64,000 nt of DNA from Escherichia coli (GTDB lineage Bacteria > Pseudomonadota > Gammaproteobacteria > Enterobacterales > Enterobacteriaceae), in the NCBI RefSeq assembly GCF_009931435.1, contig NZ_CP043414.1; one strand, written 5' to 3'. Both the position numbers and the translations under genes were made by a program. Positions 40,538 to 43,111 of this stretch are shown one piece after another; the first letter of the stretch is position 1, and every line of letters begins with the position of its first letter. The notes under the pieces were generated by a model. The model worked only from the letters and a program-made list of their open reading frames with translations. It was not told the DNA's origin and searched no databases.

Positions 40538-40753
40538 TTAAGACGTGTGGCACTTATTGGCACACCAATAGCAACCATTCACCCGGGAATATCCTTTGGC
40601 CTTTGCCTCTGTTACCGCCGAAGAACAATCACTATAGTAACCAAGGTAATCGCGGTTAGCTACAGCAGGAAGATATGAACATTCCTCAGCATGCACCTCA
40701 TGATCGCCATTGCTCTGAGCATTTTTGTTCACGTAATAGTGTTTAAAAACCAT
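40538..40753 (-). CDS. Small Cys/His-rich hypothetical protein (71 aa)
   Basis: ORF with C-terminal GCYWCANKCH motif and its own downstream terminator; family not confidently recognised. Confidence 0.4.
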   Translation of the reverse strand: MVFKHYYVNKNAQSNGDHEVHAEECSYLPAVANRDYLGYYSDCSSAVTEAKAKGYSRVNGCYWCANKCHTS

Positions 40754-40876
40754 TGTATAACTCCATGTTGACGCTGATATTCAGCATTAACATGCTATAT
40801 CACCAATTACACAAACATAAGCTTGTTATTTCAATTAGTTGATAACGATCACCACTGAACTTTGGCCTTGCGAAAT

Positions 40877-41086
40877 TCAAATGTTTTTCTGACTATTATT
40901 GGGCCGATAAACAGATATTATTTGAGCGTTTTGGTTCATTACATAAGCAATATCTCCATCTTTCAGAATGACTTTCCCATCCTTTCCCGATACGGCAATA
41001 CTCCGCTGCTCAGGATGATAGCCAATGCTACGCCCGCAATGGATCTCTTCCCCACCATTTTGAGACATGACTTTTACAGTTAACAT
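40877..41086 (-). CDS. Hypothetical protein (69 aa)
   Basis: ORF only, in the late-operon direction between the lysis genes and cos. Confidence 0.3.
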   Translation of the reverse strand: MLTVKVMSQNGGEEIHCGRSIGYHPEQRSIAVSGKDGKVILKDGDIAYVMNQNAQIISVYRPNNSQKNI

Positions 41087-41173
41087 TTTTCTGCTCCTAT
41101 TTAGATGCCCTTTCCATCCGGGCCACTGTTCAAAGTAAATTTAGATTCAACAATATTCTGCTCTTACAGGCGA

Positions 41174-41356
41174 TCAGTTCTGCATACACTGCCGAACACC
41201 GTCGACAATTTCACAGACCTGAGAAGCTGTATCGAAAAGCTGGCGCGCCTTATCCAGGCTGACGCATCCCACCAGGAAAAAAGGCACCAGTATCGCTACC
41301 AGTGCCCATTTCGCCGCCGTTCGCGGCATTCTGTGTGTCCAGTGTTTTCGCTTCAT
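41174..41356 (-). CDS. Putative small lipoprotein (about 60 aa)
   Basis: MKRKHWTHRMPRTAAKWALVAILVPFFLVGC: signal peptide with lipobox LVGC; downstream of the endolysin, possibly a spanin- or Bor-like lipoprotein. Confidence 0.35.
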   Translation of the reverse strand: MKRKHWTHRMPRTAAKWALVAILVPFFLVGCVSLDKARQLFDTASQVCEIVDGVRQCMQN

Positions 41357-41855
41357 CTCACTATCCACCAATCAATCCGGATAAGCTCAATACTCGCCAG
41401 GCGGTGGAAATGAAAATGGCAACCAACATTGCTGAAAATGAAAGGCCAACAACCACACAGAGAATTCGCGCCAGTTTTATAATGCTATCTGACATATTTA
41501 CCCCTGCCCCACTTACGATTTCACAGCAATGAGCAATTTTGCCATCCCATACAGCATCGGAGACACAGCGATACCGACCGCCACCCACTTAATGGCAAAA
41601 GCCACCGCTCTGCTGATGTCATCAGTTACAGGCGCTTTCAATTCAAGGCCGTTTTTCATAGTCAACCTCAACAGAATTAGTTTATACTTCCTCATGTTCT
41701 CCTTTGCCTTACCCAAGGCCAGAAACAGAAAACCCCGGACTGTTACCGCAGCCGGGGTTTTTGCTATCTGATGCTATGCCCCTTACTTTCGCTCATCGTA
41801 GCCCCAGAAAAGAGCCTGCATGAGTTGAGGGTGTTCAGCACTTCAGTGTCAGTTT

Positions 41856-42401
41856 TTAAACCACCACGCGCTCTTTCATCCAGCCATAGACAAACGACTC
41901 ATTGGCCTCGCGTTTCTCTGCCAGCTCCAGATAACGCTCGCCCTGCGTACAGTTCAGGGCTTTCACCAGTACCAGTTCACCATCCCTGCTGCGATTTTTC
42001 AGATATGCCCGTAATGCATTAAGAGTACGCGGCCCGATGCGTCCATCAGCATCCATATCCGGATAGAGTTTCCCGCGCAGGTTGAAAACGTTCAGCCAGC
42101 GCTGAAGCATTCTGGACGCCACAGTTGGCCCCATGTTCACGCCCGTATCGCACAACTCTGCGGCAATATCCGGAGACAGGTCCTCAACCTGGTCGAATCG
42201 TGGTCCGTACCAGTAGTCCGCCTCGAGTATTTCCAGCGCCTGCCCACGCGTCAGGTCACGCATATCGCCCTGATAACCGTGTGCACGGGCAACTTTTTCA
42301 GTGATGCCCCATTTAGTCGGACCACCTTTATCATCCGGGTGATTGACGTAACCGCCCTCTTTTCCCAGAATTTCGTCAAAAATTTCATCTTTCGACTTCA
42401 T
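41856..42401 (-). CDS. Endolysin, GH108-type with peptidoglycan-binding C-terminal domain
   Basis: Start at ATG 42401 (MKSKDEIFDEILGKEGGYVNHPDDKGGPTKWGIT), characteristic GH108 N-terminus. Confidence 0.75.
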   Translation of the reverse strand: MKSKDEIFDEILGKEGGYVNHPDDKGGPTKWGITEKVARAHGYQGDMRDLTRGQALEILEADYWYGPRFDQVEDLSPDIAAELCDTGVNMGPTVASRMLQRWLNVFNLRGKLYPDMDADGRIGPRTLNALRAYLKNRSRDGELVLVKALNCTQGERYLELAEKREANESFVYGWMKERVVV

Positions 42402-42402
42402 A

Positions 42403-42693
42403 TCAGCGCCTTCGTAATACAAGGATTTTTGATACGTTCCCGCGTGCTCGTATCACCAGCACGCAGAACACCAGGTTAATCAGGACGACCAGCCAGTTAC
42501 CGGGTGGAAAGCGACCACACAGATAACAAAGCGGCGCAAAGGCATAAAGCAGCATCAGCAGCCAGGCCAGCCACGACATCAGCGGTTTATGTCTCGACTC
42601 ACCACGACGATAAAAAAAGAGCGTCAGCACGATAACCGTGCTTAACACCACATTCAGTAATCCGGGAAGGTTACTTAACATTACCGCCTCCAC
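42403..42693 (-). CDS. Putative holin/antiholin-like small membrane protein
   Basis: 96 aa ORF with 2-3 predicted TM helices immediately upstream of the endolysin. Confidence 0.4.
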   Translation of the reverse strand: MEAVMLSNLPGLLNVVLSTVIVLTLFFYRRGESRHKPLMSWLAWLLMLLYAFAPLCYLCGRFPPGNWLVVLINLVFCVLVIRARGNVSKILVLRRR

Positions 42694-43111
42694 CCCGCAG
42701 ACGGGAGAACAGCCCGGATACCAGCGATGCGATATCCTGCTGGTGGATGAATGAGAGAATCTTCACCGACACCACCGATACCAGTACCGCACAAAGCGCG
42801 TCGAGAGATGTGCTGTGGAGATTCAATTTTTCGACCAGCCAGGACGCAAGGACATCCGCCCCCAGCACGCCAACAATGAACGACACCAGAAAATGCGCCG
42901 CCACACGCCAGACAGAAATCACCTGTGGCATCGTGGCCACAAACAACGCCCCGGCAAACGCGCCAAACACAATCCCGAAATCCGTCCCGGTAAACAGCCC
43001 GAATACCGTCGCCCCGCCGAGCGCCACAGCAGTGCTGGAACCGGATAAGGGTTCAGACATATTTATTCTCCTGTAAATAAAAAGGACCATCAGCGGCCCC
43101 GTAACTGACAT
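42671..43111 (-). CDS. Putative holin-like membrane protein
   Basis: 146 aa ORF (possible internal start) with multiple hydrophobic helices, first gene of the lysis cassette. Confidence 0.4.
   Translation of the reverse strand: MSVTGPLMVLFIYRRINMSEPLSGSSTAVALGGATVFGLFTGTDFGIVFGAFAGALFVATMPQVISVWRVAAHFLVSFIVGVLGADVLASWLVEKLNLHSTSLDALCAVLVSVVSVKILSFIHQQDIASLVSGLFSRLRGGGGNVK

Follow-up and report, generated by a model that had tools for sequence, protein, structure and literature searches.

A small orphan lipoprotein gene at the spanin position in the lysis cassette of a lambdoid Escherichia coli prophage and its relatives

We analysed a 64,000-nucleotide (nt) stretch of the Escherichia coli contig NZ_CP043414.1 (the window), which contains a lambdoid prophage adjoining a tRNA-Ser gene, between hyaA and yccA. 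The late genes of the prophage lie on the minus strand. Q (47926-47261) comes first and is followed by several genes of unknown function, the lysis region and terS (39874-39368), behind which are head and tail genes of lambda-like type. The lysis region itself reads holin 1, holin 2, GH108 endolysin, and then five small genes, which we call D, E, F, G and H. Each of the five matches a PHROG family of unknown function, and none has a match in Pfam, NCBIfam or PADLOC. Our subject is F, which encodes a 60-residue pre-lipoprotein (41174-41356, minus strand; lipobox LVGC, Cys31) and is the only credible lipoprotein open reading frame (ORF) in the prophage. The initial annotation had described two ORFs with several transmembrane (TM) segments ahead of a GH108-type endolysin, together with a 60-residue lipoprotein at 41174-41356; all of these were present, on the minus strand, and the lipoprotein carries the lipobox. 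The lysis region is 100% identical to that of E. coli N18-04097 (NZ_CP047277), and the late regions of the two prophages are ~97.6% identical overall.

F has the features expected of an outer-membrane lipoprotein. It begins with an o-spanin-type (outer-membrane spanin subunit) Sec/lipoprotein signal, with an L-x-G-C lipobox that is invariant in the family. The residue that follows the lipidated Cys (the +2 residue) is Val in the window and V, A, T, S or G among all homologues, but never Asp. According to the Lol sorting rule in Enterobacteriaceae, lipoproteins without Asp after the lipidated Cys go to the outer membrane, and F is therefore predicted to be sorted there. Its signal peptide (residues 13-37) is the only hydrophobic segment. 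The mature part, with 29 residues after Cys31 and a net charge of -1, is predicted to form an amphipathic helix (hydrophobic moment 0.4-0.53) with a heptad-like hydrophobic stripe. G30, C31, C48 and C57 are invariant in the family, and the two mature Cys residues are separated by 8 residues (C-x8-C) among main-subfamily members and by 9 (C-x9-C) in a distant subfamily. Conservation of an N-terminal KRKHWTHR motif across the main subfamily, together with the lack of conservation of Met10, places the start of F at the ATG at 41356. Between genera, the ratio of non-synonymous to synonymous substitution rates (dN/dS) was 0.2-0.28, in the signal and mature halves alike, and F is, on sequence evidence, a real gene under purifying selection in five genera.

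The F family is tiny. A profile search of 1.84 billion representative proteins returned 22 clusters, all of them F-like, and nothing that bridged F to a known family. Members of the distant subfamily (P0121, P0134 and P0139; L115 5001-5195) end in a C-terminal Lys (...DRK, ...VSK or ...RKK). Braun's lipoprotein Lpp ends in ...YRK, and by analogy it is conceivable that these proteins become cross-linked to peptidoglycan, a feature that is not found in the main subfamily.

No spanin gene was found to accompany F. A tblastn search of the whole window with the Rz and Rz1 sequences of lambda and PhiR12_3 gave only chance matches (best E 0.17). An all-frame, all-start lipobox scan of the prophage, covering embedded and overlapped ORFs, returned no credible lipoprotein ORF besides F, and the PGAP annotation of the ~97.6%-identical NZ_CP047277 prophage contains no spanin. 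The absence of Rz/Rz1 put forward in the initial annotation thus held up on all three counts, including the alignment search for homologues that could have overturned it. In ~98 related loci, the strand that encodes F had neither an Rz/Rz1 homologue nor a second lipobox ORF, and in eight diverse loci, the region -2.3/+1.5 kb of F had no ORF that combined an N-terminal TM segment with a soluble domain of at least 40 residues.

We compared ~120 loci, drawn from genomes of E. coli, Salmonella, Citrobacter, Cronobacter and Yersinia as well as from IMG/VR contigs and metagenomes; by the names of these sources, F loci extend over at least five enterobacterial genera. The gene order was always holin(s), endolysin, optional small genes, F and packaging genes, and F was never found beside a spanin. 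The endolysin was either GH108 or an M15 peptidase, the holins were either holin_8 plus holin_3_7 or lambda-S-type (PF05106), the packaging module was Nu1/A, HNH + Terminase_4, Terminase_2 or Terminase_6, and the morphogenesis genes downstream of F were of both siphovirus and myovirus types. F lies in line with the endolysin gene on the late transcript, with no promoter or terminator of its own. In the window it starts 4 nt from E, in 24 loci it begins ~17 nt past an M15 endolysin, and in Y. enterocolitica prophages the F start and the GH108 stop share the sequence ATGA. The distant relatives of F (35-62% identity) lie 3-6 nt past an M15 endolysin in three-gene cassettes with a PF05106 holin, which shows that F does not depend on the company of the holin_8/holin_3_7 pair. 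Among complete E. coli genomes, ~6.5% (353/5426) carry F, and the cassette is also present in the sequenced phage genomes phiP27, phiSTEC1575-Stx2k and vB_Apl-pPE4. In vB_Apl-pPE4, F is unannotated (L112 3001-3180), and in phiP27 the RefSeq coding sequence P27p32 (L002 4015-4246) runs across the F gene in the wrong frame.

In three pairs of homologous cassettes, the sole difference lies after the endolysin, where one member has a spanin pair and the other has F. In the first pair, the arrangement R-D-E-[Rz/Rz1] of PhiR12_3 corresponds to GH108-D-E-[F] in the window. The DNA homology between the two across D-E stops at 41353, exactly at the F start codon, and the next gene in PhiR12_3 is Rz. 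In the second, the Yersinia phage vB_YpM_39 has a hol8-hol37-GH108 cassette (50%, 41% and 82% amino-acid identity to the window, respectively), in which GH108 is followed, across an ATGA junction, by a 92-residue i-spanin (inner-membrane spanin subunit) and an overlapped 69-residue o-spanin; a Y. enterocolitica prophage has F at an ATGA junction that matches this spanin position. In the third, mEp390 and HK639 read hol8-hol37-endolysin-i/o-spanin-gp53, and their counterparts L106 and L114 read endolysin-[F-like]-gp53 homologue (66% identity). In O104-type Stx2a phages and in GER2, which do have Rz, F survives only as an unannotated pseudogene (GER2: L007 3501-3668), whose reading frame is shifted by a 1-nt insertion at codon 4 and interrupted by two in-frame stops (CAG>TAG). 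On this comparison, spanins and F strictly exclude each other at this junction in the loci compared.

The two genes immediately ahead of F both encode small membrane proteins. D (41513-41695, minus strand) encodes 60 residues with a net charge of +7 and a C-terminal TM segment (27-58); it matches phrog_1115, has no Pfam match and is preceded by an AAGGAG Shine-Dalgarno sequence. E (41361-41495, minus strand; phrog_4906) encodes 44 residues with a single TM segment. The two lie 17 nt apart when read from their ATG starts, which are preceded by Shine-Dalgarno sequences and are those used by PGAP and Prodigal. The small ORFs reported earlier at 41361-41716 exist, but their reported overlap is an artefact of taking the longest TTG- or GTG-started ORFs.

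D and E form a two-gene module that is not specific to F. It sits between the lysozyme gene R and a complete embedded Rz/Rz1 in PhiR12/PhiR5 phages, with the E homologue directly upstream of Rz in PhiR12_3, and a D-like gene lies between R and Rz in the Stx (Shiga toxin) phage GER2. E, which travels with D, was found in only ~41/98 F loci, and at least 28 cassettes with F, as well as the cassettes of the distant F subfamily, have neither gene. Because the two can stand next to Rz/Rz1, and because many F cassettes do without them, D and E are accessory genes and not a spanin substitute. We rejected them as i-spanins on these grounds and also because their predicted periplasmic tails have only ~11 residues or fewer. 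Thus, of the atypical spanin set that had been suggested for this cassette, the lipoprotein is supported, on strong evidence of position, as a spanin-type element, while the small ORFs drop out. D alone, at 60 residues and +7, was also considered as a disruptin and judged unlikely, given its hydrophobic TM segment and its coexistence with spanins. D and E might instead be optional small membrane proteins that contribute to another stage of lysis, perhaps by acting on the holin, a kind of role that has been shown for Lcc6 of LambdaSo. Unrelated ORFs of 50-56 residues with the architecture of D, a basic N-terminus and a C-terminal TM segment, recur in F-type cassettes from Salmonella and a metagenomic phage (L020 3747-3899; L106 5320-5490).

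Downstream of F, G (40877-41086, minus strand) encodes a soluble hypothetical protein of 69 residues that matches only phrog_3909 and is present in a minority of F loci. H (40538-40753, minus strand; phrog_4298) encodes a Cys-rich hypothetical protein of 71 residues. In other loci it sits between GH108 and D, and it thus behaves as a mobile small gene; it lacks PGAP annotation in the 100%-identical stretch of NZ_CP047277. G and H are probably variable neighbours, carried as cargo. Directly downstream of H is a perfect 9-bp GC-rich hairpin (40498-40518) with A-runs and T-runs on either side, which is terminator-like on both strands.

Toxin genes occur in and around the same cassette. Genes for the type II heat-labile enterotoxins (LT-II) LT-IIa/LT-IIb lie directly after the same GH108 endolysin in the related prophages L009, L117 and L121, in a slot that corresponds to 41356-41856 of the window, and in the Cronobacter locus L025 a pertussis-like toxin gene is found just upstream of the holins. 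Judged from these arrangements, the F-type lysis cassette is a hot spot for toxin morons.

The upstream half of the cassette is a canonical holin-endolysin unit, in which multi-TM holins lie directly 5' of a soluble muralytic enzyme in a late operon 3' of Q. Holin 1 (42671-43060, minus strand) is a multi-TM protein of 129 residues that matches Phage_holin_8 (PF16931, E 1e-22) and phrog_198 ('holin', E 3.5e-41). Its ORF can be read from 43111, where an in-frame ATG would add 17 residues, but the start used by PGAP, 43060, is most likely the true one. Holin 2 (42403-42681, minus strand) has 92 residues, three TM segments and a basic C-terminus, and matches Phage_holin_3_7 (PF05449, E 8.4e-21) and phrog_217 ('holin'). 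An in-frame upstream GTG at 42693 would extend its N-terminus to 'MEAVM...'; a similar extension in phiP27 reads 'MEEAAM...', and the arrangement resembles the dual-start motif of holin/antiholin genes. The endolysin (41856-42401, minus strand) is a soluble protein of 181 residues with GH108 and PG_binding_3 domains (PF05838 and PF09374, E ~1e-26). No hydrophobic or TM segment was found in it; it is therefore not a signal-anchor-release endolysin but a canonical, holin-dependent enzyme.

Between the endolysin stop codon and D lies a stable GC-rich hairpin followed by a U-run (41721-41765, minus strand; free energy -30.7 kcal/mol, z -3.2). The structure resembles an intrinsic terminator placed within the late operon, through which Q-modified polymerase would be expected to read. 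The homology to the D-E module of PhiR12_3 begins within this hairpin, at 41737. A search of the window from 39.0 to 48.5 kb against Rfam gave no match.

Two further features of the prophage lie outside the cassette. A DUF1883 gene (43260-43529, plus strand), just upstream of the holins and between terminator-like hairpins, is likely a moron. A low-GC island at ~49700-54900 (34-40% GC) is absent from the otherwise collinear NZ_CP047277 prophage. It encodes a Fic/DOC protein (49739-50233), a 500-residue ORF (51641-53143) that has no Pfam match and a weak PADLOC match to mREase_II, and a 332-residue ORF (53148-54146) with weak restriction-enzyme-like matches, and it may be anti-phage defence cargo.

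What does an orphan lipoprotein do at the spanin position? The reading we favour, to which we would give an even chance, is that F acts as a stand-alone outer-membrane lysis lipoprotein that replaces Rz/Rz1 and performs the outer-membrane step of lysis. More tentatively, and with rather less confidence than an even chance would imply, the F family might represent a third and mechanistically distinct class of outer-membrane disruption, after the spanins and the disruptins, in which a free-standing lipopeptide of ~30 residues, anchored in the outer membrane, acts with no inner-membrane partner and without a complex that spans the periplasm. On the same tentative reading, taken jointly, the phages that convert their hosts to Stx2e or Stx2k production, and prophages with LT-II-type cassettes, would likewise use F as their outer-membrane lysis factor.

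In such a mechanism, F would build up in the inner leaflet of the outer membrane while the late genes are expressed, and no dedicated inner-membrane partner would be required. Two routes to disruption can be envisaged. In the one we favour, which resembles the action of bacteriocin-release proteins or of disruptin, F would weaken the outer membrane, which would fail after holin-mediated release of the endolysin and loss of the wall. F would not have to be timed in this route, since up to holin triggering the load is borne by the wall. In the other, F would act as a 'half-spanin', inserting into the inner membrane as turgor presses this onto the outer membrane after the wall has been degraded.

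Several points weigh against F as an outer-membrane lysis factor. Our literature search found no experimental work on F or its homologues. F has no sequence similarity to Rz1 (tblastn with lambda and PhiR12 Rz1) or to a known o-spanin family, and no match in Pfam at E<=0.1, including to the colicin lysis protein profile. A sequence search of the PDB with the F profile gave no relative of solved structure, with a designed repeat protein and a corrinoid protein as chance matches. The AlphaFold2 model is a single long helix of low confidence (pLDDT 67). As a helix, mature F would measure ~4.4 nm, far short of spanning the periplasm, and unlike phiKT gp28 (net +7) it is not cationic. The loci sampled are from related prophages, so that the ~120 contexts amount to perhaps 6-8 independent mosaics. 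Phages with defective spanins are still able to lyse their hosts under shear, which means that an outer-membrane disruptor is not indispensable for a phage to persist, and another resident prophage could supply spanins in trans.

An alternative is that F is the o-spanin of a minimal two-component spanin, with a partner that is small or unrecognised: the 64-residue ORF of phiP27, D or E, a holin loop or a host protein. It draws on the existing record, where phiP27 is listed as a 'separated' two-component spanin and is a SpaninDB singleton in the family tables of i-spanins and of o-spanins alike, with a 64-residue i-spanin (32 periplasmic residues) and a 51-residue o-spanin (30 periplasmic residues), whose combined periplasmic length of 62 residues is the shortest of 528 systems (Kongari et al. 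2018, PMC6139136). F does have the hallmarks of an o-spanin, namely an outer-membrane lipoprotein signal, periplasmic Cys and a position in the lysis cassette, and the o-spanin of T4 likewise has a C-terminal helix and two essential Cys (PMC6139136). The phiP27 o-spanin entry (20706-20861) is an F homologue, 95% identical over the full 60 residues, and begins at the non-conserved internal Met10. Its choice in that study, made independently of ours, as the sole o-spanin-like gene of phiP27 also speaks for a role of F in outer-membrane lysis. The i-spanin entry (20348-20542), however, is a TTG-started ORF with no PHROG match, which lies wholly antisense to a 90-residue ORF that does match phrog_36812, in a region present in only 4 of the ~98 F loci. 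We therefore rejected it as a conserved partner; it is absent from the window and from >95% of F loci, and the 'two-component spanin' of phiP27 probably has no i-spanin at all. Nor do the other candidates fare better. D and E stand beside complete Rz/Rz1 elsewhere and are missing from at least 28 F cassettes, a holin loop was rejected as an unlikely partner because F occurs with unrelated holin families, and none of the eight diverse loci described above has an ORF of the i-spanin layout near F. As 62 combined periplasmic residues would also be the extreme minimum of the 528 systems, we regard a minimal spanin as distinctly improbable.

F could also be a non-lysis lipoprotein moron of the Bor, Cor or Llp type, with a role in serum resistance, receptor masking or superinfection exclusion, in which case these phages would have no dedicated outer-membrane disruptor. 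We consider this unlikely, though likelier than a minimal spanin. In its favour, the post-endolysin region is an insertion hot spot that holds LT-II toxin genes in related prophages, variable small ORFs (G, H and a 93-residue ORF) come and go after the endolysin, and small phage lipoproteins with exclusion functions, such as T5 Llp, phi80/N15 Cor and lambda Bor, are well known. On the other hand, its lack of a promoter and terminator of its own, and its coupling to E or, by start/stop overlap, to the endolysin gene, argue that F is expressed late and not in the lysogen. It travels with the holin-endolysin module and not with the tail or receptor-binding module, and its occurrence beside both siphovirus and myovirus tail sets argues against receptor masking. 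Its exclusion by spanins at the junction, its pseudogenisation where Rz is present and the lack of a PADLOC match for F also speak against a moron. That the cassette is simply decaying, with its spanin genes lost and the small ORFs left as functionless remnants, strikes us as highly improbable. Related LT-II prophages are visibly defective, with deletion fusions and degraded F, and the side tail-fibre gene is a pseudogene in the near-identical NZ_CP047277 prophage, but none of F, D and E is damaged, purifying selection acts on F in all five genera, and tblastn finds no spanin remnant in the window. The same cassette is moreover found in the three sequenced phage genomes named above, and phiP27 is an inducible, transducing phage.

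The cassette is therefore best described as a recurrent variant, catalogued wrongly until now, in which an orphan lipoprotein stands in place of the spanin pair; what we say of its function is inferred from sequence. About 13-15% of Gram-negative phages have no recognisable spanins, and to our knowledge only one non-spanin alternative for the outer membrane has been characterised, the cationic disruptin of phiKT. The F locus offers a genetically tractable E. coli candidate for how spanin-less phages breach the outer membrane. It also occurs in the toxin-converting phages phiP27 (Stx2e) and phiSTEC1575 (Stx2k), in which lysis controls toxin release. Rz has been reported in 277/279 Stx phages, and a two-member pham of metallopeptidase (canonical) endolysins is confined to cluster C (Pinto et al. 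2021, PMC8136144). We infer that the two Rz-less phages are this cluster C pair, with a phiP27-type cassette. Should F prove sufficient, the ability of so short a lipopeptide (30 residues) to compromise the outer membrane would be of interest for outer-membrane mechanics and for engineered lysis systems. Two records call for correction, the phiP27 entry as the shortest two-component spanin and the frame of P27p32.

How does F compare with known systems? It shares its slot, right after the endolysin in homologous cassettes, with Rz/Rz1 of lambda and with the spanins of mEp390, HK639 and vB_YpM_39, and like Rz1 it is a small, predicted outer-membrane lipoprotein with periplasmic Cys, encoded on the late transcript. 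In contrast to Rz/Rz1, there is no embedded, overlapping or adjacent i-spanin gene, and mature F, at 30 residues, is predicted to be helical, is not Pro-rich and cannot bridge the periplasm. Thus, both the cognate i-spanin gene and the periplasm-connecting length of a two-component spanin are lacking, with 29 residues after the Cys in F and tails of ~11 or fewer in D and E. The u-spanin gp11 of T1 is also the product of a single gene in a lysis cassette with an N-terminal outer-membrane lipoprotein signal, but it has a C-terminal TM anchor and a periplasm-spanning domain, and F has neither.

The remaining parallels are with smaller proteins. The phiKT disruptin gp28 is, like F, a helical, amphipathic product of a small single gene by the endolysin of a spanin-less phage. 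However, gp28 is cytoplasmic, has no signal and carries a charge of +7, whereas F is predicted to be exported and lipid-anchored, with a mature charge of -1. The colicin lysis or bacteriocin release proteins are pre-lipoproteins of ~45-60 residues, processed to lipopeptides of ~28-33 residues that permeabilise the envelope. F is alike in size class and chemistry, but it does not match their profile (PF02402), and its genetic setting is the late operon of a phage, not a colicin operon. Lambda Bor, T5 Llp and phi80/N15 Cor are small phage-encoded outer-membrane lipoproteins, as F is predicted to be. Their genes are expressed early or from promoters of their own, and they are either associated with genes for tails or receptors or encoded on the other strand; F, in contrast, is in line and tightly coupled with the endolysin, whatever the tail type.

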